Shown here one piece after another: positions 7,159 to 32,717 of a stretch of 41,532 bases of DNA; the stretch's first letter is position 1; every line of letters starts with the position of its first letter. The translations under genes were made by a program, and so were the position numbers. The stretch is from Deltaproteobacteria bacterium (GTDB taxonomy: Bacteria > Desulfobacterota > Desulfobacteria > Desulfobacterales > SURF-15), in contig DUZK01000003.1 in NCBI GenBank assembly GCA_013349495.1, positions 1-41,532 on the forward strand. Direction: 5' to 3'. The notes beneath the pieces are model-generated. The model was not told the DNA's origin and did not search any database. It saw only the letters and a program-made list of their open reading frames with translations.

Positions 7159-7247
7159 AGCAACCCCCATAATTAAACGTCTCGAGAATTCTACAACTTG
7201 TTGAAAACAAATTAGTTTTTTGAGGCCTCGAGTTTTGCCTCATCTAT

Positions 7248-7422
7248 GGAATAATGGAATGGTGGAATATTGGAACGTTGAATTATTGCGAAGTTTATCA
7301 TTTTTAATTCTTCCATCAACTGAAATGAATACCAACAAGCCATTATCCCATCTTCGCAGAACCCATTATTCCATTGTTCCAGTATTCCATTATTCCAATT
7401 GTGAGCGAAGCGAATTAAATTC
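7248..7422. repeat. MITE-like element with inverted arms made of 8-nt GGAATRnT tandem units
   Basis: ggaataat-ggaatggt-ggaatatt-ggaa near 7249-7276 and complementary cccattattccattgttccagtattccattattcc near 7362-7396; a half copy occurs at about 1421-1447. Confidence 0.7.
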
Positions 7423-7635
7423 AATCATTAGTGAATTCGATTGAATGTGTCAAGAAAAGGAAGCGGTATATGTCAGAAAATCGATGGCAAAGAATAAAGC
7501 GCCAGGTTCAAGGTTCACGAATCGTGTGTCGCGAGACGACTTGCAGTTATTCATCCTGTCAAATAATCTTCGAATTCAACTATGCAGGTATGAAGCGCAG
7601 CGAAGACCGCCTCGGTGATTCTCATGCGATCAACC

Positions 7636-7701
7636 TTGACAAAAGCTATTATTAGATTATATTGAATTTTATGATTTTTCAGATAATTCTGAATATTCTG
7701 A
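7636..7701 (+). promoter_or_regulatory. Sigma70-like promoter with 9-nt periodic operator array
   Basis: TTGACA 7636-7641, TATATT 7658-7663; six phased 9-mers ending in GA from 7648 to 7701. Confidence 0.6.
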
Positions 7702-7715
7702 TTTAGGAGGACATT

Positions 7716-7997
7716 GTGACAAACTCAAAAACCAAAGACGATCGGAATTCCAAATCCCCTCTGTGCGACCCGGGAAGCTGTAAAGTAGAAGCTTTGGTGG
7801 CAATGGATGCTCGGGGGCAGGTCGTTCTGCCCAAGAATGTTCGTGAAAAGGCCGGATTCAATGGGGGTGATAAGCTGGCGGTCGTGTCCTGGGAGCGGAA
7901 TGGAAAAGTCTGCTGTATCACCCTTCAAAAAGCCGATGATCTTGAAACCATGGTAAAGAATTCCCTCGGTCCCATACTAAAACAAATTTTAAGTTAG
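7716..7997 (+). CDS. AbrB/MazE/SpoVT-fold protein, HgcAB-associated (HgcC-like), Cys-rich
   Basis: MDARGQVVLPKNVREKAGF..GDKL AbrB signature plus LCDPGSC and VCC; AGGAGG RBS with GTG start. Confidence 0.78.
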   Translation: MTNSKTKDDRNSKSPLCDPGSCKVEALVAMDARGQVVLPKNVREKAGFNGGDKLAVVSWERNGKVCCITLQKADDLETMVKNSLGPILKQILS

Positions 7998-8009
7998 AGG
8001 CGTATTGAA

Positions 8010-8831
8010 ATGGAAGATATTCGAGATGTGGTGAGAGATAAGTATGGCGAAATAGCGAAAACAAGGACCTCCTGTTGCGATCCCGGCAATTCTTGCTGCG
8101 GCAGTTCAAACCGGGCCGATCATGCCGGTAAAGGAATCGGGTATTCAGACCAGGAACTCGGATCCATTCCCACGGATGCGAATTTAGGACTGGGATGCGG
8201 CAATCCCACCGCCCTTGCAGCATTACGAGATGGGGAAGTGGTGGTTGATCTGGGTTCAGGCGGCGGAATCGATTGTTTTCTGGCCGCCAAACAGGTCGGC
8301 AAAAGCGGCAAAGTGATCGGAGTAGATATGACAGCAGATATGATCAGCCTGGCACGGAAAAACGCTGAAAAGGTCGATGCCGAAAATATTGAGTTTCGGC
8401 TGGGAGAGATCGAAAACCTTCCGGTAGCCGACAATACCGCAGATGTTGTCATTTCAAACTGCGTGATCAACCTCTCGCCTGATAAACAGCGGGTTTTCAG
8501 TGAAGCCTACCGGATTCTAAAATCAGGAGGTCGGATGATGGTTTCCGATATCGTTCTGCACAAAAAGATCCCGGATGAGCTTGAAAAAAGCGTTAACGCC
8601 TATGTGGGTTGTGTTGCGGGGGCCATGCTGAAAACCGATTATTTAAAAGCGATCGCCGATGCAGGGTTTGAAGAGATTAACATAATGGGAGAAGACTGTT
8701 TCGGGTCTTTTGGCGAAACTCTCGATCCCTATGTTCAATCTCTGGCAAAGGAATCGAATCTCAGCATCGAAGAGCTGAGGGAATTCGGAAAATCAGTGGT
8801 GTCCATCAAAATCGAAGGGATTAAGAAATAA
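8010..8831 (+). CDS. arsM: Arsenite S-adenosylmethyltransferase
   Basis: LGLGCGNP, DLGSGGG, SNCVINL, VGCVAGA motifs and N-terminal CC pairs. Confidence 0.92.
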   Translation: MEDIRDVVRDKYGEIAKTRTSCCDPGNSCCGSSNRADHAGKGIGYSDQELGSIPTDANLGLGCGNPTALAALRDGEVVVDLGSGGGIDCFLAAKQVGKSGKVIGVDMTADMISLARKNAEKVDAENIEFRLGEIENLPVADNTADVVISNCVINLSPDKQRVFSEAYRILKSGGRMMVSDIVLHKKIPDELEKSVNAYVGCVAGAMLKTDYLKAIADAGFEEINIMGEDCFGSFGETLDPYVQSLAKESNLSIEELREFGKSVVSIKIEGIKK

Positions 8832-9844: not shown

Positions 9845-10524
9845 CAGAAACGCGTGGTGGAATTCGGCGAATGGCTATGTAAGGCGGTCTTGAAATATGT
9901 CCCCCACCGTCAGTGGGTTTTCAGTATTCCAAAACGGCTTCGAATCTATTTTATGTTCGATCGCAGTCTTCTTACAAAACTGAGCCGGTGCGCATGGAAA
10001 GTACTGAACCTATATTTGACGCAAGCCGTACCCTATGACGATGCCAACGCTGGTGCTGCAGTCGCTGTGCAAAGCTTTGGCGATTTCCAAAATTTCCATC
10101 CCCATCTACATGTTCTCGCCACCGATGGTTGCTTTTACAACGACGGCGCTTTCATGATCTGTCCTCCCCTCAAAACCACAGAGCTTGAAGAAGTTTTCCG
10201 ACATGAAGTGTTCAAAATGCTTAAAGCTGAGGGTAAAATAAATGACACGGTGATCGAAAACATGCTCAATTGGCATCACAGCGGCTTTAACGTTTATTGC
10301 GGTAACGCCATTTGGCCTCACAATGAAGAGGGCCTTGAGAATTTGGCGCGCTATATCATCCGTGCGTCATTTTCTCAAGAACGGATGACATATATTACAA
10401 CCGATGATTCCCCCGATGGCACTGCAAAAGTGATATACGAATCGAAAGACGGCAAGACCTCAAAAACCTTCGATGCCCTCGATTGGTTGGCTCAGCTTAT
10501 CACCCATATCCCCAACAGGGGGGA
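9845..10524 (+). pseudogene. IS91-family HUH transposase, central fragment (copy 1, left part)
   Basis: QKRVVEFGEWL, HRQWVFSIPKRLR, HPHLH (HUH), HSGFNV, LARYIIR, HIPNRGE; N-terminal Zn module missing and similarity stops at about 10524. Confidence 0.88.
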
Positions 10525-10583
10525 AAAACGGGGTCGCATCTTAAATATTAATTATTCAAAACAAACAGTTAATAATTAAGACC
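10525..10583. repeat. AT-rich hairpin with GGGTCGCATCTT end at the transposase breakpoint
   Basis: tcttaaatattaa ... ttaataattaaga inverted repeat (1 mismatch); a related gggacaaatctt hairpin lies at about 9795-9832. Confidence 0.5.
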
Positions 10584-10818: not shown

Positions 10819-11991
10819 TCAAAATGATTTGAGCAGGTTTAACCCTCCGCTTGCAAGGGGGGGCATACTCATCACATACGCCGTCGTGTTCACCGCCTGC
10901 TGTGCGGGTCGGGTGACATGAACCACGAGATGCATCCGGTCCGTTTGGAGGATCTCCGGAGCGATCGGGAAAAGAGCGCCCAGGCCCTTGATACCTGCCA
11001 CTGCATTTGAAAAACCCATCTGCTTCCAGATGCCGTCGTTTTCCTTGGGCACGGCAAAGGTGCCGAGGATGTCCCGGCCGCCTTCGCTCCATCCCCCTTC
11101 CTTGTGTTCGATCTGCTTTCCGCCGGACCACCGGGTGTATGTCCAGCTGACCGTCAGCGTCCATTCCCGATAGAGCTCGTATATTTCATAGAGTGTCGGT
11201 CCTGCTTTATTGCCGTTGTCGTCCATGAGATAGACGGTTTGAAAGGTGCCCTTGTCAGGGGAGTCGAGTATGGTGGTGCTGATATGAAGCCCCTTTTGGG
11301 TCATCTTCCCGCCCACCCTGATTTTCGTTCCGGTTGCCGGATCCGAGAAGGTGCGCTTCATACTATCAGAGCAAGGGTCTTTGGCCAGTTTCGGCGCTTT
11401 CTCCGCCTTGTCATCACCGCCGCGGCCGCCGAACACGCCTTTGGTAAGGCCGCTCAGAGCACCGCCAAGCATACCCGTTGCCTGCTCCGCAACCTTCTGC
11501 TTCCGGCGCGCGCCTGTTCCGACATCGGCATTCTTGCCGACCGAAACAGGCTGGGCCGCCTTCTCGATAACGGAAACCACGTCCTTATCAAGGGCACATA
11601 TACCGCCGTCAAGATCCATGGAAACAAGGGACAATGCCCCACTGTCGATCTGAAATGCCCCTGTTTCGCTCGGTACTGATTTTATAGGCGTCATCGACAA
11701 TTTAACCGGCCACTTATAAGTGATCGTATTCCCAGCTGCCTCTGTCACCTTGACGACCTCAGGTCTGACTATGAAGCCTTCAGGCAGGCTGAGCGTTGCA
11801 CGCCCTTCAGAATCGGTCCGGGTCTCTCCGATCGACTCCCCTTCCGCCGTCTCTATTTTGACGGTGGCGTCCGGCACGGACCGGCCGCTCTGCGTTACGA
11901 TCAGATTGCCGGTCACTGCAAACACCGGCGCAGAAAAAAGGACAAAAGATAGGGTGAAAGATGAAACAAGCGCAGAAGTCTTCATTTTCAT
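10819..11991 (-). CDS. Secreted hypothetical protein with N-terminal carboxypeptidase-regulatory/Ig-like domain
   Basis: AAGGAG RBS, signal peptide ending VFA, VPDATVKI..TRTDSEG motif. Confidence 0.7.
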   Translation of the reverse strand: MKMKTSALVSSFTLSFVLFSAPVFAVTGNLIVTQSGRSVPDATVKIETAEGESIGETRTDSEGRATLSLPEGFIVRPEVVKVTEAAGNTITYKWPVKLSMTPIKSVPSETGAFQIDSGALSLVSMDLDGGICALDKDVVSVIEKAAQPVSVGKNADVGTGARRKQKVAEQATGMLGGALSGLTKGVFGGRGGDDKAEKAPKLAKDPCSDSMKRTFSDPATGTKIRVGGKMTQKGLHISTTILDSPDKGTFQTVYLMDDNGNKAGPTLYEIYELYREWTLTVSWTYTRWSGGKQIEHKEGGWSEGGRDILGTFAVPKENDGIWKQMGFSNAVAGIKGLGALFPIAPEILQTDRMHLVVHVTRPAQQAVNTTAYVMSMPPLASGGLNLLKSF

Positions 11992-12013
11992 GTCTCTTCT
12001 CCTTTTGAAGTCT

Positions 12014-14269
12014 TTATCCCAGCTTGAGATTGAACCGCGATTCACGCTTAAAGCCGTTTTCGTGTTCCACAATGAGGCGGAGCGTCCAGGTCTTGGCGCC
12101 CTTGAAATGCTGCGGGGCAATGAGCGCAAGCTGTCCGCCTTTGACGGGTGCGGTAATATCATCCGAGACCTTGTTCCATTTTGTCGGATGGTTTCCCTTT
12201 CCCGCCGCTATCCAGGCCCGTTTAAAATGATCCGCCATGGCGCGGCCGGAAACCTCGATATGGAACTTCCCCTCCTTTTTTGTTCCGGCAACTTTAAAGA
12301 TTCGGGAAATCACATAGAAATTCGGGTCCGCACGGAAGGCAGCCTCGGCATCGAGAAGTCCGTAGCCCGTGAACTGGTCCCATCCCGGCACATCGATGTC
12401 TCTTGCCGAATGGAGGATCATTCTCGTTGCCTGCATGCCGGAAAGCTCCGGGCTCTTCGAGAGGATGAGCGATGCCACACCACTGACAAAGGGCGCGGAA
12501 AAGGATGTTCCGGTGACGCGGTAATAATCCTTGCCCCTGCCTACAAAGGCGGTGCCCGGTTTATAATCCTTCTTCTCGAATTTGAGAAGGTCCGTCCGCT
12601 TGGCGCGAAGCGAGAGGATATCGACGCCCGGAGCGGCGATGTCGATACCCGCTCCCCATCCGGAATAGCCAACCCTTTTATCGTCAGGTCCCGTGGCTGC
12701 GACCGTGACAACCCCCGGAAGCCCGGCAGGCGAATACTCATTTGTATTCATTCCCTCATTTCCCGCAGCGGCAACAACGACAACCCCTTTGCTCCTCGCA
12801 TAGCCAACTGCGAGGAGTTCCATGCGGTTGAGGCGCTTTCCGCCGATGCTGATATTGACGACGCGTGCCCCGTTGTTCACGGCATAAATGATGGCCTTGG
12901 CGATATCAAAAGCCCAGCCCCTGCCGTTCCACTCCATGGCCTTGATCGGCATAATCTTCGCCCATGGGTTCACTCCCGCAATGCCAATCTTGTTGTTTAT
13001 CAAAGCGGCAATGATGCCTGCAGTAATCGTTCCATGACCGTTGATATCTCCGATATCGTTGTTGTTATCGACAAAGTTCCACCCATGGACGTCATCCACA
13101 TAGCCGTTCTTGTCGTCGTCCTCGCCGTTGCCGGGGATTTCCTTCCCGTTTTTCCAGAGCGATTCGGAAATCTCGGGATGGGTGCGGTCAATGCCCGTGT
13201 CTATGACCGCAACGATGACAGGCTTTGCTTTGTTTGGCCAGAGCGATTTCTCCTGATCCTCATGGATGGGCCTGAAGCCGATGCGGTGGAGACCCCACTG
13301 GTCGAAATAACTCTGACCCCAGCTTCCACGGCTCTTGAACAGGGGATCATTCGGGAATGTTTCAGACTGCTGGATCTTGCGGGGGTCGTCTTCAATTATG
13401 AAAGGCTCTAAAGGCTTCGGTTCTTTGAAAAACTTATAGCGAAAAACCATGCCGCTGTCATCCGGTTCAATGCCGAGATCATCATCGTCAAAGGGGGATA
13501 ACCACTCAAAGACAAACATATCGGCTGTTGTTTCAGTTGCGGCTCCGGCCTTATCTTCTGAAGAAGTTCCCAATTTTTGCTTCTCGCGCCACCAGTCTAC
13601 TATCATCCATTCTAAGACCAATTCAATCTCTTTACTTTTTTCCAACTCAACCGGGCCTGAACCGCCATTGATAATAACGATCGGCTGAAGATACGGGACA
13701 ACACTCTCGATTTTTATATCTTCTTCCGTCTCTTCTTCTGTCTCTGTCGCATCCAATCCACTTGATTTCCGATGCTCTATCAAAAGATTGCCTATTCTTG
13801 CCCAATCTTTTTCATCTTCACCCGTAAGAAGATATATCGCTTTTGCCAATTCTGTTGCTCTATCCTCAGGGCGCTCTTCATGGAGAATGACCATGTGGCG
13901 CTTCGGGGTCGGCTTGAGCTGAACGGAGCCGCTTTGGATGAGATCTTCACCGGTGACTGTGACAGCCTTGTGACCCTCTGCATCAATAACGTATTCAGAT
14001 TTCGGGTTGATCAGGTGACCGCCCTTTACGACATCGATAGACTCGTCTTCCGGGGCGTCTTTGTCCGGTATTTCAATCGTTGTCGTCTCTATGGGTTCTC
14101 CTTTTGTGTCAGTGGCCTTGATATCCCCTATGCTGACAGCCCGGCCTGATGAGGTGTATGCGGCAAAAATGAAGCATACCATGAAGGTTACGGGCAGAAC
14201 TTTGAAAGCAGGAGAAGCGTTCCGTTTTAGGGTCTCCTGGGGGGAATGGATATGTTTGCGATGGATCAT
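12014..14269 (-). CDS. S8 family (subtilase) serine peptidase, secreted
   Basis: Catalytic triad motifs VAVIDTG, HGT, GTSFS; AAGN oxyanion; DDDKNGYVDD insert; GGAGG RBS. Confidence 0.93.
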   Translation of the reverse strand: MIHRKHIHSPQETLKRNASPAFKVLPVTFMVCFIFAAYTSSGRAVSIGDIKATDTKGEPIETTTIEIPDKDAPEDESIDVVKGGHLINPKSEYVIDAEGHKAVTVTGEDLIQSGSVQLKPTPKRHMVILHEERPEDRATELAKAIYLLTGEDEKDWARIGNLLIEHRKSSGLDATETEEETEEDIKIESVVPYLQPIVIINGGSGPVELEKSKEIELVLEWMIVDWWREKQKLGTSSEDKAGAATETTADMFVFEWLSPFDDDDLGIEPDDSGMVFRYKFFKEPKPLEPFIIEDDPRKIQQSETFPNDPLFKSRGSWGQSYFDQWGLHRIGFRPIHEDQEKSLWPNKAKPVIVAVIDTGIDRTHPEISESLWKNGKEIPGNGEDDDKNGYVDDVHGWNFVDNNNDIGDINGHGTITAGIIAALINNKIGIAGVNPWAKIMPIKAMEWNGRGWAFDIAKAIIYAVNNGARVVNISIGGKRLNRMELLAVGYARSKGVVVVAAAGNEGMNTNEYSPAGLPGVVTVAATGPDDKRVGYSGWGAGIDIAAPGVDILSLRAKRTDLLKFEKKDYKPGTAFVGRGKDYYRVTGTSFSAPFVSGVASLILSKSPELSGMQATRMILHSARDIDVPGWDQFTGYGLLDAEAAFRADPNFYVISRIFKVAGTKKEGKFHIEVSGRAMADHFKRAWIAAGKGNHPTKWNKVSDDITAPVKGGQLALIAPQHFKGAKTWTLRLIVEHENGFKRESRFNLKLG

Positions 14270-14766
14270 GGCAACCTCCTTTTTTGAATGATACAGAGGC
14301 TTTCTGATTTACGGCTGATCGGTCGATGAGAAAAGTTGCAGTAACTTCATGAAAATATAGACATTCCGGTCAACAAAAAGCAAGCCCTTTCTTCAATACC
14401 ATCCCATTGGCGATATCACGCGGAAGATCATATGATGTAAAATATCGAGATCGTATTATGCAATCGACCGGATCCCATCTGTTTCAACAACGACACGCGG
14501 GCGGCCGCCCATTGAAGAGATCCCCATCTCTTCGGTGGAGATGTTGCTTGGACCATACCCCGGCGCCGGAAAGAGGCCCATCCGCACGGTGATGATCGCA
14601 GACTCCGAATGACGCATGAAAATTGTGGTTGAAAGGTAATGGAATCTCTAATACATTTTTCTCCGGCAGGTTCTTTTCTCTTATCATTCCTGAAAGAAAG
14701 AATTATAATCGGATACCATTAACGCCATGCGTTGCGGGTTGAAAATGTTACGGCTTGGCATGCAGG

Positions 14767-14866
14767 GGTTCCGGTTCAAAACCGTCGATGGGCTGATCCG
14801 GAGTCGAAGGCACTCCGGGCCGCGATCCCTCGCAGGCGAAAACCGAAGCGGCACCGGTCCGGAACC
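14767..14866 (+). promoter_or_regulatory. Putative structured leader RNA, loosely resembling c-di-GMP-I/c-AMP-GMP (GEMM) aptamers
   Basis: Outer pair ggttccgg/ccggaacc, inner hairpins ccggagt/actccgg and gcga/tcgc; upstream of AAAGGAGGT RBS. Confidence 0.3.
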
Positions 14867-14913
14867 AAAAGGTACGGTCCGTTTCATTCAATTATACTTA
14901 AAGGAGGTCAGTC

Positions 14914-14955
14914 ATGGTTGAGACAAAACAAGGTTTCACGTTTTCGGTATGCTAA
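14914..14955 (+). pseudogene. Truncated prepilin-like N-terminus MVETKQGFT
   Basis: Strong RBS and ATG; KQGFT resembles a class III signal (K.GFTLIE) but is cut where the transposase resumes. Confidence 0.4.
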
Positions 14956-15202
14956 AAATTGGGCGCGGCTGATCCAAAAGATATATAATGTTGATCCCTT
15001 ATTATGCCCTAAGTGCCTGGGTTCAATGAAAATAATATCGATCATCGAGGATGGTAAGATTATTGAAAAGATACTGAGACACTTGGGCTTATGGGAAACC
15101 AGAAACCATGACCCGCCCGCTAAAATCGCCTCCCATATCCCTGATCTTACATATGACGATTCTTATTCTCAGCTTTCACCTACCAACTCTTGGCTCCAAT
15201 AA
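14942..15202 (+). pseudogene. IS91-family transposase C-terminal fragment (copy 1, right part)
   Basis: KNWARLIQKIYNVDPLLCPKC..MKIISII..KILRHLGLW..HDPP, homologous to the C-terminus of copy 2. Confidence 0.85.
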
Positions 15203-15503: not shown

Positions 15504-15734
15504 ATGCAGGTAAATATCCATGAAGCAAAGACAAATCTTTCCCGCCTTCTCTCCCAGGTGCAGAAAGGTGAAGAGATTATTATTGCCAAGGCAGGGAAGC
15601 CAATCGCCCTCTTGACAAAATTTACAGCAGAAATACCCAAACGAATGCTGGGCAGGGATGCCGAACTGTTTGAAGTGCCGGACGACTTTGATGATCCATT
15701 GCCGGAAGATATTCTAAAAAGTTTTGAATCATGA
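15504..15734 (+). CDS. Phd/YefM family antitoxin
   Basis: VNIHEAKTNLSRLL..GEEIII.KAGKP. Confidence 0.92.
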   Translation: MQVNIHEAKTNLSRLLSQVQKGEEIIIAKAGKPIALLTKFTAEIPKRMLGRDAELFEVPDDFDDPLPEDILKSFES

Positions 15735-16129
15735 ACAGACTCCTTCTTGATACGAATGTCTGGCTCTGGAGCATAACCACTCCTCGTAAGCTCGGAAGAG
15801 AAGGGCTCAGACTGCTCGAAAATACCGCTAACGAGTTGTTCCTGTCAGCGGCAAGCTCGTGGGAAATCGCGATTAAGTACAGACTGGGCAGGCTTCCGTT
15901 GCCCGAACCCCCTCACAGATTTATTCCACCGCGATTGATTCGGGACGGAATAAAGCCGCTTGCCGTGGAACACCACCACGCATGCCACGTGGCAAATCTT
16001 CCGGATCTTCATCGAGATCCTTTTGATCGTCTCTTAATTGCACAGGCTCAGACCGAACATTTGGCTTTTATCACCGCAGACCAGAGGCTAAAGGATTATA
16101 AGGTGGAAATGATTCTCATTAATCATTAG
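15731..16129 (+). CDS. vapC: VapC PIN-domain toxin
   Basis: LLDTN, SSWEIAIK, HRDPFDRLLIAQA; ATGA overlap with antitoxin. Confidence 0.92.
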   Translation: MNRLLLDTNVWLWSITTPRKLGREGLRLLENTANELFLSAASSWEIAIKYRLGRLPLPEPPHRFIPPRLIRDGIKPLAVEHHHACHVANLPDLHRDPFDRLLIAQAQTEHLAFITADQRLKDYKVEMILINH

Positions 16130-16145: not shown

Positions 16146-16790
16146 GTGGCTATGGTTTCTTTTGAAGCGATCACCAAGGCGGTTACCTCCGGGGACGGCA
16201 ACCTGGCATACGAGCTGACAAAGAGCGCGCTGGACGCTGATGTTTCTCCCAACGATATTCTGGATAAAGGCTTGATTCCCGGCCTGCAGGAGGTGGGCGA
16301 CCAGTTTGAAAGCGGCGATTTTTTTCTGCCCGAATTGATCGTGGCCGGCGATGCTGTTTCCAAAGCATTGGAGCTTTTGGATCCGATACTCGGTAAAGAA
16401 GGTGCGGCGACAAAGGGAAAGTTCTTGATCGGTACGGTCAAGGGAGACATCCACGACCTGGGGAAAAACATTGTTATCATGATGCTTAAGGGAAACGGGT
16501 GGAAAGTCACGGATTTGGGCGTGGACATATCTCCGGATGAGTTCTGCACGGCCGTGGCCGAAGGAGATTATGACGTCCTCGGCTTATCGTCTTTGTTGAC
16601 CATGACCATGCCGAATGCAGCCCAAACTATTGAAGCACTGAAGGCAAAGGGCCTCAGGGACAAGATCAAGGTGATGGTCGGCGGGGCCCCGACTAAGGCC
16701 GAATGGGCACAAAAAATCGGCGCAGACGCCCATGCAAAAGACGGCCCTTCCGCTGCAAGGGTGGCGGCAGAACTGATTGCAAACGCATAG
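16146..16790 (+). CDS. Methyltransferase cognate corrinoid (B12-binding) protein
   Basis: Cap domain (VGDQFE..FFLPEL), GDIHDLGKNIV, LSSL, VGGAP; start may be ATG 16152. Confidence 0.92.
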   Translation: MAMVSFEAITKAVTSGDGNLAYELTKSALDADVSPNDILDKGLIPGLQEVGDQFESGDFFLPELIVAGDAVSKALELLDPILGKEGAATKGKFLIGTVKGDIHDLGKNIVIMMLKGNGWKVTDLGVDISPDEFCTAVAEGDYDVLGLSSLLTMTMPNAAQTIEALKAKGLRDKIKVMVGGAPTKAEWAQKIGADAHAKDGPSAARVAAELIANA

Positions 16791-16806
16791 TCTAAAGGAG
16801 ATACCC

Positions 16807-17859
16807 ATGAAAAGCATGAACGGCCTTGAGCGCATAAAGACAGCCTTAAAGCTTCAGGAAGCCGACAGAGTCCCTCACTTTGAAAGAGTTGCAACATCCG
16901 TGAGAGAGGCGATCTTGCCCGGCGCTTCTGAAGAAGACTTTATTGAGCACATGGACCTGGACGGAATCCGGTTCGTGGATCGGACCCATTCCTGGGATTA
17001 TGAAATCTTTGATGAAAGCAAGCATATCAAAAAAGATCAGTGGGGCGGCCTGGTACGGTATACCACCGAAGATAATCCGGTTCCCATGGACCCGGCGATC
17101 AAGTCGGAAAAAGATTTGGATGCATACGTGCCTCCGGACCCGGATGCACCTCATCGATACGAATATCTTCAACGGCTGGTAAAGCGGTTTAAAGGGGAGC
17201 GGGCCATCATGGTCGGGTTGACCGACATTTTTGCTTTGGGCAGAGAAAATTTTTTGGGAGATATCGGCTATTTCAGGGCGATGGTGAAGAATCCGGATCT
17301 TATCGAACGGGTCAATGAGATCATTCTCGATTATCAGTTGCGTTATGCAAAGAACTGTATCGAGTTGGGAGCCGATGTCCTGTGGATCAACGGAGACTGG
17401 GCAATGACGGAAAAACCGATGGTTTCCCGGCAGTTTACGGAAAAATTTCTTGCTCCCCCTTTAAAGAAGCTTGTGGATTTTGCCCATGAGCGCGGCATCC
17501 CTTGTGTAAAGCACACGGACGGTAATATATGGCCCATATACGATGTGATTCTCGATACGGGAATCGACGGTTTGCATCCCATCGATCCCATGGCGGGAAT
17601 GGATATCGGCGAAGCCAAGGAGAAGTTTGGAGATCGGGTTTGTTTGTGCGGCAATGTGAGTTGTGCTTTTAGTCTGGTCTCAGGGACTGTGGAAGAAGTA
17701 AAACAGGAGACAAAAGAAGTCATCCGGAAAGCCGGTAAAGGCGGGGGGTTCATTTGTATGTCGAGCAACTCCATCCATTCCGGGGTTAACCCCAAAAACT
17801 ATGTGGCCATGGTCGAAGCGATCCGGGAATATGGTTCGTATCCGTTGGCGCTGGATTAG
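16807..17859 (+). CDS. URO-D/MtaA-CmuA family protein (probable corrinoid methyltransferase)
   Basis: ERIKTAL..DRVP, DQWG, HTDGN, LCGNV, GGGFI.SSNSI; AAAGGAG RBS. Confidence 0.85.
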   Translation: MKSMNGLERIKTALKLQEADRVPHFERVATSVREAILPGASEEDFIEHMDLDGIRFVDRTHSWDYEIFDESKHIKKDQWGGLVRYTTEDNPVPMDPAIKSEKDLDAYVPPDPDAPHRYEYLQRLVKRFKGERAIMVGLTDIFALGRENFLGDIGYFRAMVKNPDLIERVNEIILDYQLRYAKNCIELGADVLWINGDWAMTEKPMVSRQFTEKFLAPPLKKLVDFAHERGIPCVKHTDGNIWPIYDVILDTGIDGLHPIDPMAGMDIGEAKEKFGDRVCLCGNVSCAFSLVSGTVEEVKQETKEVIRKAGKGGGFICMSSNSIHSGVNPKNYVAMVEAIREYGSYPLALD

Positions 17860-20536: not shown

Positions 20537-21511
20537 ATAAGAAGTTGCTTTGAACGAATGGATTCATTCCAAAAATCCGATTGTGTTAAAGATATGATCA
20601 ACGCACAAGATCTGGGTTTATCGGAAAGCCATCGAAACTGATGAATTCATAAACGAATCAGAATCCTGCTGTCAATAGATTTTCGAAGTCGATGATCTGG
20701 CTGTTGGCGTAGTTTTTACATACCAATCGGGGTGTTCCGATCCTGTTAAAGATATGATTCGAGCGGATAATACGCCAGAGGCGCACAAGTCCGGGTCTCT
20801 GACATATTCCTCGGAACGAGGCTGGAGAGCATCGTCGAACGAGGGTAACTCATCGTATGGAGGGGCCCTCCAGAGGCGGGTAAACGTTGCCTTTGGCGGC
20901 GGTTTTCGTTTTATATTCCACAGAGTTAGATGCTTGAGTATCTTTTTGATCACTTCTTCATCTTCAATGAAAGCAATCACTCGCATCGCACCGGAACATT
21001 TGGGACATATGAGGGGATCCACTTCGTATATTTTTTGTATCAAGCGCGCCCAATTCCTCCTGAACGCCTTGTCGGTAACTTCCGCCACCAGGATGCAGGG
21101 AATATTATCGTCTGCGCCTTCCTTTTTTCGTTTTCCAAGCGCCACATTGCTGTAGTGTCCATAGTAACGCACCATCTGCTCCCCCCTGTTGGGAACGTGA
21201 GAACCCATTGCTGCCAACCACTCCAGCGCGTTCAACACCTCTGTTTGCTTCCCGTCTTTGGACTGGTATGCAACCTGGCCGGTTTCACGATTGTAGTTCA
21301 TCCGGGCAAAACCGTTATTAAGAATTCCACAGTCAAGATACCTGCGTATCACCTGCATCACGTATGGCCGGTAAAACCCGTATCGTCTTTCATAACGCTC
21401 TTCATAGATCTGCTCAAAAAATTCGAAGTAATCCTCAACACACTGATAATATACCGAATTAATAGGGTTACGAGACTTGTAAACAGAACTTACTGACACC
21501 GTTCCTCCCAC
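20537..21511 (-). mobile_element. IS91-family non-autonomous derivative (copy 2) with in-frame internal deletion
   Basis: N-terminus ending YLDCG..GFAR is fused directly to MNY..SKDGK..EQMVRYYG..NWARLIQKIYEVDPLICPKC; no HUH motif; terminus 15-mer at 20537-20551. Confidence 0.85.
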
Positions 21512-21729: not shown

Positions 21730-21999
21730 ATGGAAACCGAATTCTCTCTTTCAGAGGCAAAATCGAAATTTTCAGATATCATAAACCGTATTATCTATAG
21801 AAAAGAAAGAATTTTAATCACCAAAAAGGGGAAGAAGGTAGCTGTTATATTTTCAATAGATGAATTTAAGAAATATGAAGATAAAGGGCTTATTGAAGCT
21901 AAAGGCGCTTTGGCGGATTTAGACGAAACGCTTGATGAAATGACCAGCCATATATATGAAGCGAGGAAATTGGAAAAGAGCAGAGAGGTTGATCTGTAA
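21730..21999 (+). CDS. Phd/YefM family antitoxin
   Basis: SLSEAKSKFSDII..RILITKKGKKVA. Confidence 0.9.
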   Translation: METEFSLSEAKSKFSDIINRIIYRKERILITKKGKKVAVIFSIDEFKKYEDKGLIEAKGALADLDETLDEMTSHIYEARKLEKSREVDL

Positions 22000-22409
22000 T
22001 GTATCTGTTTGATACGGATGTGTTGAGCAACATCGTAAAACGGAATCCATCACCTGTCCTGTTGGAAAAATTAGGAAATCTTCCAAAGAAATTACAGTTT
22101 ACCAGCGCCATCAATGTCGGTGAAATCTATTACGGCGCAAATCGGTCAAACCGAAAAGATCAAATCATTAACGCATTTAAAGAGCGGGTTTTTCCTAAAG
22201 TGAACATAATTGCTTTCGATGAAACCGGTGGAAAGTTATTTGGTAAACTAAAAGCTGAGCTGGAGAAACAGAGTCTTGTTTGCAGCGAACCCGATTTGAG
22301 AATTGCGTCGATTGCGCTTCAACACGATTTGAAGCTGATAACCGGAAACACGAAACATTTTATCAAGATACCCGGTTTGAGCGTCGAAAACTGGATCGGT
22401 GAGGATTAG
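21999..22409 (+). CDS. vapC: VapC PIN-domain toxin
   Basis: YLFDTD, GEIYYG, DLRIASIA, TGN.KHF..IPGL.VENW; TAATG coupling. Confidence 0.92.
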   Translation: MYLFDTDVLSNIVKRNPSPVLLEKLGNLPKKLQFTSAINVGEIYYGANRSNRKDQIINAFKERVFPKVNIIAFDETGGKLFGKLKAELEKQSLVCSEPDLRIASIALQHDLKLITGNTKHFIKIPGLSVENWIGED

Positions 22410-28219: not shown

Positions 28220-28330
28220 CAAGCGTTTGCGCGTCTAAACTTGACCGATCTGGACCAAACCACCATCCGCCGTGTCTTGATAGACTCTGCTTGCATTTTG
28301 ATTTCACTACACCCTGATTCAGGAGTTAAA

Positions 28331-30073
28331 ATGGATAAAGAAGCACATGTTCATCCCCTCGGAACCCGCGCCAGAGTCTTACTGTCAAGCGTCTTTGGTC
28401 CCTATGCCCGAAACGACGAATACGGCAGTCGAAAAATCAATCCCATGGAGCTATACCACAACCAGGTCACGCGGATCCAAAAAGGGTTTTCCCTTCGCAT
28501 GTTTCACCGGTCCTTCGGGTTAATGCTGATCCAGGAAAATATCAAGGCTCCCTGCACGTTGCTCGATTTCCCCACTCTTGAACGGTTTATCGAAGAAATC
28601 CGGCAAAATGACTACGATATTGTCGGTATCAGTTCGATCATCCCGAATGTCGGCAAAGTCAGAGAAATGTGTAAACTCATCCGGCAACACCTACCCCATA
28701 CCATAATTGTGGTCGGCGGGCACATTGCGAACATGGCCGGAATCCAAGAGAGCATCGATGCCGATCATATCGTAAAAGGTGATGGTGTAAAATGGTTCAA
28801 GCAGTTTCTCGGTCAGGATAAAAAGACGCCTGTAAAACATCCCCCCGTAATTTCTGCACATGGTACCCGGTGTTTGGGGTTCACCATGCCTAACAAACCC
28901 GAAGATACAGCTGCTATTTTAATCCCTTCGGTGGGGTGTCCGGTGGGGTGTAATTTTTGCTCCACGTCTGCATTGTTCGGGGGCAAAGGCCAGTTTGTGA
29001 ATTTCTACGAAACCGGTGAAGAACTTTTCGAGGTCATGTGTCGGATCGAAAAAAAGTTGAAAAACCGATCCTTTTTTATCCTGGACGAAAATTTTCTGCT
29101 GCACCGTAAAAGAGCGCTCGGGTTGCTCGATTTAATGAAAAAAAATAACAAAAGCTGGATGTTAAACGTTTTCAGTTCCGCCCGGGTGTTGCAATCGTAC
29201 ACTATTGAACAACTCGTGGGGCTCGGCATCGGCTGGGTTTGGATGGGCCTCGAAGGCAAGGAAAGCCGGTATAGAAAGTTAAACGACATCGACACCATAG
29301 AGTTGGTGAAGTCTCTGCAGTCACACGGAATCCGTGTTCTCGGCTCCTCAATTATCGGCCTGGAAAACCACACCCCGGAAAATATCGATCAAATTATCGA
29401 TTATGCGGTGAGCCATGATACGGATTTTCATCAATTTATGCTCTATACCCCAAATCCAGGAACCCCGCTGTATGAGAAGCATAAGAAGGATGGAACGCTT
29501 TACAATGATTCGGAATTTCCCGTTGCCGACGCCCATGGTCAGTATCGATTCAATTATCGGCACAAGCATATTCATAACGGTCAGGAGGAGCAATTTCTTG
29601 TAAACGCCTTTCAGCAGGATTTTGCAGTCAACGGCCCCAGTCTTGCCAGATTGATCAAAACGATGCTCAAAGGATGGCTGCGGTACAAACATTATCCGGA
29701 TGCACGCATTCGTGACCGCTATGAATGGGAAGTGAAACCGTTGAAGACGACATATGCCGGTGCCGTCTGGGCGATGAAAAAGAGGTATCGGAAAAACAAA
29801 CAGATGAAAGAGAAGATGGATCACCTTTTTCAGGATATATGCAGAGAGTTCGGCTGGAAAACAAAAATGATTGCCCCCCTTGTCGGTGTTTGGGTTTACA
29901 TTACCCTGAAGGCTGAAGAAAAAAGATTGGCCAACGGCTGGACCTATGAGCCGCCTTCATTTTATGAAAAAAATGAAAAGGCTCTTGCTTTGAAAGGCAC
30001 CAAAATCTCGCGTGTAGTGCCTGAAATTACAGGAGTTCGCGGGAAGTACACCCCCTCTACACAGCAGTTATGA
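28331..30073 (+). CDS. Cobalamin-binding radical SAM protein (class B-like)
   Basis: B12-binding domain (DIVGISS, VVGG), CPVGCNFC, DENF, GLE, PGTPLY; AGGAG RBS. Confidence 0.9.
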   Translation: MDKEAHVHPLGTRARVLLSSVFGPYARNDEYGSRKINPMELYHNQVTRIQKGFSLRMFHRSFGLMLIQENIKAPCTLLDFPTLERFIEEIRQNDYDIVGISSIIPNVGKVREMCKLIRQHLPHTIIVVGGHIANMAGIQESIDADHIVKGDGVKWFKQFLGQDKKTPVKHPPVISAHGTRCLGFTMPNKPEDTAAILIPSVGCPVGCNFCSTSALFGGKGQFVNFYETGEELFEVMCRIEKKLKNRSFFILDENFLLHRKRALGLLDLMKKNNKSWMLNVFSSARVLQSYTIEQLVGLGIGWVWMGLEGKESRYRKLNDIDTIELVKSLQSHGIRVLGSSIIGLENHTPENIDQIIDYAVSHDTDFHQFMLYTPNPGTPLYEKHKKDGTLYNDSEFPVADAHGQYRFNYRHKHIHNGQEEQFLVNAFQQDFAVNGPSLARLIKTMLKGWLRYKHYPDARIRDRYEWEVKPLKTTYAGAVWAMKKRYRKNKQMKEKMDHLFQDICREFGWKTKMIAPLVGVWVYITLKAEEKRLANGWTYEPPSFYEKNEKALALKGTKISRVVPEITGVRGKYTPSTQQL

Positions 30074-31682: not shown

Positions 31683-32717
31683 CTATACACGAATAGGATA
31701 TCGGCCGTATTTTTTCACCGCCTCGGACATGGCCATCACGCATTCGGGCTTCAAATAGGATGCCAGACTGTTTCCGCTGGTGAGTACATACCCGCCGCCC
31801 GGTGCGACATCCCGGATCAATTCCCTGACCTCCCTGTCCGTATCTTCCGGAGTACCTGCCCCGAGAATGTTCAAATCGAGATTGCCCAGCAAACAAACCC
31901 TGTCCCCGTATGCTTTTTTTACAGCGGCAATATCCATGGCCCCTTTTTCAATGGGATGAAACCCCGCCACCCCCAGATCGATAAAAAGATCCATTACCTC
32001 CGAAATGTCCCCGTCACTATGCAATATCCACGGAATAGTGACCTTCTCCAGGACTTTCCGATACCGGGGCACCAGCAATTCTTTAAACACCTGAGGTGCA
32101 AACATGAGGCCCGACTTGTGGGCGAAGTCATCGGTGGTCCAGAATAGGTCGAAACCGATCTTGCACATGCGGTCCGCCACCACGACCATCCAGTCAAAAT
32201 ACATATCCAGCATCTTTTCCACCATGGCCGGCTTATCATAAAGCGCCATGGAGAATCTTTCTAAACCGAGACTCAAAACCACCTGAAAAAACCCGATCCG
32301 TGTCACAAAGCATGTGACATAATCCCCTTTCTCGGCAATAAATTCTTCAGCTTCAGCATAAAGTTTGTCATCATGAGGATCCGGCAGATCGATCATTGAC
32401 AGATCATCTTCAGTCCTGATCTTTCCGTCCCCTACAAATGTTCTGCCGTCGATTCCTTTATGCATATGGGCATAGGTCGGTGCACGCAGGATGTAGCTGA
32501 TGTTGTCGAGGCCGATATGCGCCGCAATGGCTTTTGATTCTTCCACTGTATAGGGGTTCTCAGATCTGCTGCTGGTACCGACATCCGCCACATCATCCCA
32601 ATCCAACAATTTCTGGGCCAGACCGCGATCCACTGCGATATCGCAAAACGGCACCCGGTCCGGTTCCTTTAAACTTATGGCCTGCAACACTCGTTCGCGT
32701 GAAGTCATCTCCATCAT
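31683..32717 (-). CDS. URO-D/MtaA-CmuA family protein
   Basis: MTSRERV..EPDRVP, TDDFA, HSDGD, LLGNLD, GGGYVLTSGNS. Confidence 0.87.
   Translation of the reverse strand: MMEMTSRERVLQAISLKEPDRVPFCDIAVDRGLAQKLLDWDDVADVGTSSRSENPYTVEESKAIAAHIGLDNISYILRAPTYAHMHKGIDGRTFVGDGKIRTEDDLSMIDLPDPHDDKLYAEAEEFIAEKGDYVTCFVTRIGFFQVVLSLGLERFSMALYDKPAMVEKMLDMYFDWMVVVADRMCKIGFDLFWTTDDFAHKSGLMFAPQVFKELLVPRYRKVLEKVTIPWILHSDGDISEVMDLFIDLGVAGFHPIEKGAMDIAAVKKAYGDRVCLLGNLDLNILGAGTPEDTDREVRELIRDVAPGGGYVLTSGNSLASYLKPECVMAMSEAVKKYGRYPIRV

Follow-up and report, generated by a model that had tools for sequence, protein, structure and literature searches.

A putative AbrB-fold autorepressor of the HgcC family and its proposed 9-bp operator array at the promoter of an arsM unit

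How might an arsM gene be controlled where no arsR gene accompanies it? The question is raised by a 41,532-nucleotide stretch of a contig from a Deltaproteobacteria bacterium (DUZK01000003.1; "the window" below means this whole stretch), in which arsM (8010..8831, forward strand, ATG start), encoding a 273-residue arsenite S-adenosylmethionine methyltransferase, follows a gene for a 93-residue protein (7716..7997, forward strand, GTG start). The original prediction proposed that this small protein, described as HgcC-like and AbrB-folded, might be a thiol-based sensor-repressor acting on a 9-nt periodic operator in an operon devoid of arsR. None of the 41 scanned ORFs of the window matched an ArsR family in an NCBIfam profile scan, as had been predicted, and the two clear ArsR/SmtB genes of the genome lie on other contigs, adjoining genes for membrane proteins.

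The promoter, the 93-residue gene and arsM 12 nt beyond it were all found in the sequence where they had been placed. A -35 hexamer, TTGACA (7636..7641, forward strand, by sequence scan), and a predicted -10 hexamer, TATATT (7658..7663, forward strand), are separated by 16 nt and give 11 of 12 matches, the joint best of 12 promoter-like sites between 6500 and 10000; shuffled versions of that region hold 5.7 ± 2.4. A ribosome-binding site, AGGAGG, follows at 7705..7710 (forward strand). The two genes are a two-gene unit with hgcC first, and the overlap of a GAGG at 7997-8000 with the hgcC stop codon suggests that their translation may be coupled. A metatranscriptome, X1 (groundwater according to its record), holds one contig that covers 7769-8200, and hence the hgcC-arsM junction, with two differences, and another that covers 8232-8769; because these contigs come without strand, start or level, and DNA was possibly present, they are a weak hint of expression. 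Metatranscriptome X2 contained a fraction of 0.11 of the words; in X3 they were nearly absent.

Between a usp gene and the hgcC promoter lies a long inverted repeat of 8-nt units (7246-7425), the arms of which (7247-7275 and 7369-7397) are 86% complementary; related sequence recurs at about 73 sites spread over 55 contigs of the genome, and on several metatranscriptome contigs, and the repeat is a dispersed REP/MITE-like element separate from the operator described below. Three IS91/ISCR-like transposase fragments are found at 9854-10579, 14732-15202 and 20672-21511, two of them near PIN-domain or Phd-VapC toxin-antitoxin genes (15731-16129 and 21730-22409). On the reverse strand, 10819-14269 encodes a subtilisin-like protease of 751 residues and then a 447-residue protein with no NCBIfam family.

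The ArsM protein is full length, scoring 353.5 bits on NF008823 (PRK11873; cut-off 263) over residues 1-272. Its cysteines comprise two N-terminal CC pairs (22/23 and 29/30) and single residues at 63, 151 and 201, a set that agrees with the four-cysteine ArsM pattern for As(III) methylation, here a predicted activity. The same contig carries genes for a corrinoid protein, MtaA/CmuA-type methyltransferases and a B12-type radical SAM protein (16146-17859, 31683-32717 and 28241-30073), which by their sequences appear to form a cobalamin methyl-transfer set.

The protein encoded ahead of arsM is HgcC-like, as had been proposed: it scored 109.9 bits on the NCBIfam profile NF040962 (cut-off 70), covering positions 1-70 of 70. 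The proposed AbrB fold was recovered as well, sequence and structure searches both returning SpoVT/AbrB-type proteins first. The best PDB sequence matches were SpoVT and AbrB-family proteins (2.7e-5), TIGR01439 gave 27.5 bits against a cut-off of 28.3, and Foldseek ranked SpoVT/AbrB proteins at the top with a probability of ~1 and E > 0.001; Sso7c4 was also among the sequence and fold matches. The winged helix-turn-helix profiles PF01022 and NF033788 gave no match, and HgcC is not a member of the ArsR/SmtB family.

The AlphaFold model of HgcC has a mean pLDDT of 80.5, with residues 1-19 under 50, and ends in a C-terminal helix (73-92). The protein is predicted to form an intertwined homodimer of the swapped-hairpin AbrB/SpoVT type. 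In predictions run with four copies and zinc, the dimer score was 0.58, against 0.02 for the best control; 20 of 30 solved pairs and 1 of 23 single chains attained the mark set for this score. Contact agreement between runs was at least 81% and pLDDT at least 69, with contacts 70-70' and 25-56/58'; resemblance to AbrB dimers of known structure is the probable reason for the pass. A confident interface appeared in two of the four copies only, and no confident contacts were seen past one dimer, which leaves a tetramer or filament unsupported. The same four-copy prediction gave no ligand position for a zinc site. Among 8000 candidates of 218-2000 residues no fused form of HgcC was found, which is weak evidence.

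The cysteines of HgcC were central to the original prediction, which pointed to a C-x4-C and a CC motif. Both C17-x4-C22 and C66-C67 are present in the window protein, and C22, C66 and C67 are conserved; C-x4-C was rejected as a family motif, since C17 is not conserved in 69 aligned homologues. In that alignment D31, G34, Q35, K40, R43, G51, D52, L54, A55, C66, C67 and P86 are invariant and C22 is at least 90% conserved. We also assembled a best-match sample of 163 loci from the top 80 of 565 matches in genomes and the top 80 of 551 in metagenomes, with the window and two relatives added, and among its 149 loci that could be assigned a cargo, by which we mean the arsM or hgcA gene following hgcC, the CC pair is present in 148 and C22 in 146. 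All 149 proteins have between three and seven cysteines; other AbrB-like frames have none in 18 of 26 cases and never more than two. C21 is found in 80 of 94 arsM-linked proteins and 29 of 55 hgcA-linked ones. The predicted dimer register would place C22' near the 59-66 hairpin of the partner subunit, which carries C66-C67.

Upstream of hgcC, the six phased 9-mers of the original prediction are present exactly as written (7648-7701), and only their phase had to be changed: units ending in GA were given up, on comparison with homologues, for a palindromic unit lying 2 nt over. In this phase boxes 1-6 read TATTAGATT, ATATTGAAT, TTTATGATT, TTTCAGATA, ATTCTGAAT and ATTCTGATT, six abutting 9-bp pseudo-palindromes with the consensus WWTCWGAWW that form a putative operator at 7650..7703 (no strand assigned), spanning the -10 hexamer, which lies within boxes 1-2, and the leader, with the ribosome-binding site coming right behind box 6. 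A matrix built without the window locus scored the boxes at 7.2, 6.0, 6.9, 8.9, 10.7 and 10.7 bits, respectively, so that boxes 4-6 (7677-7703) are the strongest, and the flanks were negative. The 9-nt periodicity is beyond chance: the array matches itself with an identity of 0.62 when shifted by 9 nt and 0.61 when shifted by 18 nt, against 0.26-0.46 for the other shifts from 5 to 19, and neither the summed lag score nor six phased GA was reached by any of 20,000 shuffles with periods of 6-12 permitted. Scored over four boxes with the same matrix, the array ranks first in the 3.87-Mb genome (37.3, versus 23.2 for the runner-up), and among the top three positions of each contig we found no wider regulon of such sites.

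The same array was seen in the upstream DNA of nearly all homologue loci, in both bacteria and archaea. From the best-match sample, 158 loci offered at least 90 nt of upstream sequence, 148 after dereplication, and at least two WWCWGWW cores were present in 138 of these 148 regions, compared with 5% of dinucleotide-shuffled sequences and 1 of 126 control regions taken from far upstream. Spacings between cores of 9, 18, 27 and 36 nt accounted for 161, 84, 27 and 13 pairs, where at most 0.3 per spacing was expected. The central base of the core is A in 187 cases and T in 180, a balance that is expected if a two-fold-symmetric protein reads the box. Most loci have three to five boxes; the six of the window locus place it among the 11 of 148 with six or more. 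Weak matches that are other AbrB-like proteins lack the array, with none of 29 such loci reaching a 4-box score of 18, the homologue median being 28.4.

The array accompanies two kinds of promoter. TTGAC(A/T) precedes it in 102 of the 148 dereplicated regions, where it spans the spacer, the -10 region and the leader, and the commonest best -10-like hexamers are TATAAT (22), TATACT (11) and TATATT (8). Archaeal-type TATA promoters account for 30 of the 148, and here the array flanks the TATA-like box, lying 7 nt ahead of it in 27 of the 30. Five loci (L038, L062, L106, L153 and L160) have both TTGAC(A/T) and a TATA-like box, with archaeal-type spacing inside the array; these are possibly relics of transfer from archaea to which a bacterial -35 was added.

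Because the motif had first been read by eye from the same loci in which it was later counted, we also approached it from the cargo side, starting from the top 30 loci for hgcA and the top 30 for arsM in a phylum sample. The array (3-box score of at least 18) lay upstream of 27 of the 28 loci headed by hgcC and of none of the 32 without hgcC, in a set in which at least two loci repeat training loci and related loci are not independent; the 32 include five with a detected arsR. The array thus goes with the regulator gene and not with the cargo. In two cases in which hgcA might be controlled in trans by an hgcC-arsM unit elsewhere in the genome, no array was found at hgcA (scores of 3.6 at L259 and 10.3 at L262). 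Box-like sequence under the threshold was seen at three hgcA loci without hgcC, L238, L246 and L255 (10.6, 16.7 and 17.3), in L246 about 136 nt before hgcA, and these are possibly relic operators. At one further locus (L231; G446:C22:3000-8500) hgcC is broken by two TGA stops and has many substitutions, the array is weaker (3-box score 17.0), and an intact-looking arsM is followed further downstream by an ArsR-like ORF, read by eye; here one regulator may have been replaced by the other. Selenocysteine was considered for the two TGA codons and rejected, as one of them sits at an invariant Gly and the gene reads as a pseudogene.

The comparison of neighbors that the original prediction called for showed that the cargo is nearly always arsM or hgcA. 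In the best-match sample hgcC is followed by arsM in 95 loci, by hgcA in 55 and by another gene in 4, with 9 loci too short to tell, so that arsM or hgcA is next to hgcC in 150 of 154 informative loci; the ratio of the two is possibly biased, since the loci are best matches to an arsM-linked query. The four others comprise an arsM behind a nitroreductase, another methyltransferase, an hgcA further on and one unassigned locus. In L136 the order is hgcC-arsM-hgcA-hgcB in a single run, both cargoes standing behind one regulator gene, and in L071 hgcC and a short ORF precede a methyltransferase of UbiE-like type, distinct from ArsM (85 bits against a cut-off of 263), which is a possible third cargo. 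Representatives of the cargoes pass their NCBIfam cut-offs, and of the 52 proteins in the HgcA cluster, 43 carry the cap-helix pattern, which we take to mark HgcA.

The original prediction had noted that this gene is seen here without hgcAB. Indeed no HgcA over the cut-off was found in the window genome, which is 92.7% complete and has one hgcC over the cut-off, one of two weak matches being an acsC-type gene by eye; yet this setting is no exception, being the commonest context in the best-match sample, and the name HgcC is too narrow for a family in which 95 of 163 members of that sample head arsM. Within the phylum hgcC was present in 61 of 401 sampled genomes, its 30 best matches divided into 22 with arsM and 8 with hgcA, and it heads 21 of the 30 best-scoring arsM loci. 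Among close kin it occurs in 3 of 61 genomes including that of the window, and is absent from those of the same genus and family. On an unrooted tree of 83 HgcC proteins (93 columns, bootstrap not fully settled) the arsM and hgcA labels need 10 changes, at least five of which are forced by starred branches, indicating that HgcC swapped cargo repeatedly; the window protein pairs (96/81) with that of L165, an hgcC-hgcAB locus of the same order.

Taken together, these observations make it very probable that HgcC is an autorepressor acting on this array. HgcC dimers would occupy the palindromic 9-bp boxes lined up across the promoter and so repress their own unit, with one two-fold-symmetric dimer per box and cooperative loading along the abutting boxes; a two-fold-symmetric β-sheet dimer suits a palindromic box, and the abutting arrangement suggests such cooperativity. 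MetJ loads cooperatively on tandem palindromic boxes, and HgcC is closer in logic to MetJ than to MraZ, the AbrB-fold precedent offered by the original prediction. In bacteria an occupied array would block sigma-70 polymerase at the -10 and start site, and in archaea it would block TBP and TFB at the TATA box and BRE, so that one cassette could serve both domains. Trivalent arsenic would then bind the conserved cysteines, HgcC would leave the DNA, and arsenite methylation would be switched on. The inducer would be As(III), MAs(III) or both, held at the CC pair and C22, possibly across subunits; this is the least certain step, although, granted autorepression, we consider arsenic a reasonably likely inducer. 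For the complete scheme of an arsenic-released HgcC autorepressor, as read from sequence, the balance is slightly favorable.

The arsenic step draws on known ArsR/SmtB repressors, our comparison set being R773 ArsR, AfArsR, CgArsR, ArArsR of the arsRMC operon and ArsR2 of P. mercurii ND132, which precedes hgcAB. As(III)-sensing ArsRs use three cysteines at differing positions, two suffice for MAs(III), and the site of CgArsR is a CC pair with one cysteine of the other monomer (PMC11868830). In the favored model HgcC would resemble these proteins in its three conserved cysteines, a CC pair among them, and as a small homodimer encoded by the first gene of an operon, with a site overlapping the promoter and with arsM or hgcAB as cargo. 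The main cargo, arsM, moreover encodes an enzyme whose substrate is arsenite. It differs from them in having no winged helix-turn-helix and a multi-box 9-bp array, and its arsenic response is proposed from sequence. In ND132, arsenic elicits a response from the ArsR-like regulator that controls hgcAB (bioRxiv 10.1101/2022.10.17.512643), and arsR-like regulators are discussed by Peterson et al. 2025 (PMC11984097).

The analogy with MraZ holds in that MraZ represses its own promoter and binds cooperatively to tandem boxes (PMC12957436), and the array of HgcC likewise consists of tandem boxes at its own promoter. The likeness is otherwise loose: MraZ recognizes, as described there, GTG(G/T) with six-base spacers in place of abutting 9-bp pseudo-palindromes. 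The MraZ boxes are non-palindromic and are contacted by a ring of two-repeat subunits, whereas HgcC is a single-repeat protein with palindromic boxes and a conserved cysteine triad.

The arsenic-released autorepressor has to be weighed against other readings, and that most deserving of attention, though we think it unlikely, keeps the autorepressor and its operator but has the cysteine cluster sense thiol-redox stress or a soft metal, Hg(II) or another; arsM and hgcAB would then belong to a general thiol-stress response. One third of the cargo (55 of 163 best-match loci) is hgcAB, the cysteine number is variable, with C21 commoner in arsM-linked proteins, and thiols also bind Hg(II), Zn and oxidants; cyanobacterial AbrB2, an AbrB-family repressor, is controlled by glutathionylation of one cysteine (PMC4264147), and for the ND132 regulator other metal(loid)s are not excluded by its authors (bioRxiv 10.1101/2022.10.17.512643). 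Against a different thiol signal stand the majority of arsM among the cargoes and the ArsC-like genes that follow hgcC-hgcAB in 8 of 39 loci with at least 3 kb downstream, and a general stress regulon sits poorly with an array that scores highly at one genome site only. Arsenic itself has a point against it, in that other ars genes are scarce nearby. At the same downstream length acr3 is present in 6 of 45 arsM loci and 1 of 39 hgcA loci, and in the window genome tblastn gave no acr3 or arsC-like match at E < 1e-10. ArsR was found near hgcC in 3 of 94 arsM loci and 3 of 55 hgcA loci; ArsR detection, here and at the cargo loci lacking hgcC, used three to four query proteins, so that loci in which neither hgcC nor arsR was detected may hide divergent ArsRs. 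A plain feedback autorepressor, or an activator, that sets the methyltransferase level, its cysteines being structural (for example as a Zn site) and binding no ligand, we regard as improbable. MraZ, which autoregulates via tandem boxes and is reported as an activator in one species (PMC12957436), offers a precedent; two metal(loid) methylation cargoes in 150 of 154 loci are nevertheless hard to explain without a shared signal, and AbrB-like controls mostly fold without cysteines, which argues against a structural role. In favor of the same reading, we know of no small-molecule site in this domain of AbrB/SpoVT relatives.

It is still harder to credit that the array is not the operator of HgcC and is instead an RNA leader hairpin, a promoter feature rich in A and T, or a site bound by some distal regulator, ArsR for example. 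Boxes 3-6 can fold as a hairpin (-6.9 kcal/mol) and ArsR/SmtB genes exist elsewhere in the genome. However, 45 cores sit 9-22 nt past the first base of the -35, where no transcript would yet have begun, and an element with boxes ahead of the -10 is more likely to act as DNA than as RNA; the array is also absent at all 32 cargo loci without hgcC, and the two ArsR loci of the genome score 8.4 and 4.6 on the array matrix. Least probable of all is that HgcC is a PrlF/MazE-type antitoxin and that the cargo shares the regulation of a toxin-antitoxin system, a proposal made for hgcAB by Zhang et al. 2023 (PMC10349881). A JGI label, "antitoxin PrlF", agrees with this, and the Pfam MazE_antitoxin profile gave 23.3 bits, below its cut-off of 24.7; but the next gene is almost always arsM or hgcA, the model shows the C-terminus as an ordered helix, and among 93 scanned neighbors the sole toxin gene was ParE, in a separate Phd-ParE pair. 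In the window no toxin gene lies beside hgcC according to the ORF list and the NCBIfam and Pfam scans.

The original prediction spoke of an uncharacterised class, which is apt for its function, but the family has been named by NCBI and proposed as a regulator of hgcAB. Zhang et al. 2023 found it immediately before hgcA in 14 contigs and in 8 of 31 cultured methylators, and suggested TA-type regulation (PMC10349881); McDaniel et al. 2020 (PMC7438021) report, for 112 genomes, a putative transcriptional regulator ahead of hgcAB that may belong to the same family. The window protein, above the family cut-off, shares with the HgcC of Zhang et al. its place as first gene of a unit and its role as a proposed regulator, and a COG2002 protein of Methanocella paludicola in the supplement of that paper has the same VDERGQ and CC motifs, compared by eye. 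The window hgcC differs in heading arsM, with no hgcA found; the paper, in the portions drawn on here, regards its gene as an archaeal-leaning TA gene, without operator, cysteine analysis or arsM link. In the openly accessible literature searched, we found no paper on an operator, an arsM link or a cysteine-based mechanism of HgcC.

Both the control of hgcAB and its evolutionary purpose are described as open in the sources cited above (PMC10349881, PMC11984097, bioRxiv 10.1101/2022.10.17.512643), and since both its operator and a candidate site for the ligand are now defined, the second common regulator of hgcAB can be tested directly, using a 93-residue protein and a probe of 54 bp. Should the inducer be arsenic, methylmercury formation would be tied to arsenic in the methanogens and Nitrospirota that use HgcC, a metalloid sensor class other than helix-turn-helix would be added, and the control of arsM without ArsR in many anaerobes would be explained. 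More tentatively, at somewhat less than an even chance in our estimation, HgcC would be the first arsenic sensor on the AbrB fold, a portable cassette of regulator and operator, able to work at sigma-70 as well as TATA promoters, whose cargo has changed repeatedly between arsM and hgcAB. Were this true, mercury methylation would have been put under arsenic control twice, by the unrelated ArsR-like and HgcC regulators, and this twofold control would point to an arsenic-related native role of HgcAB.
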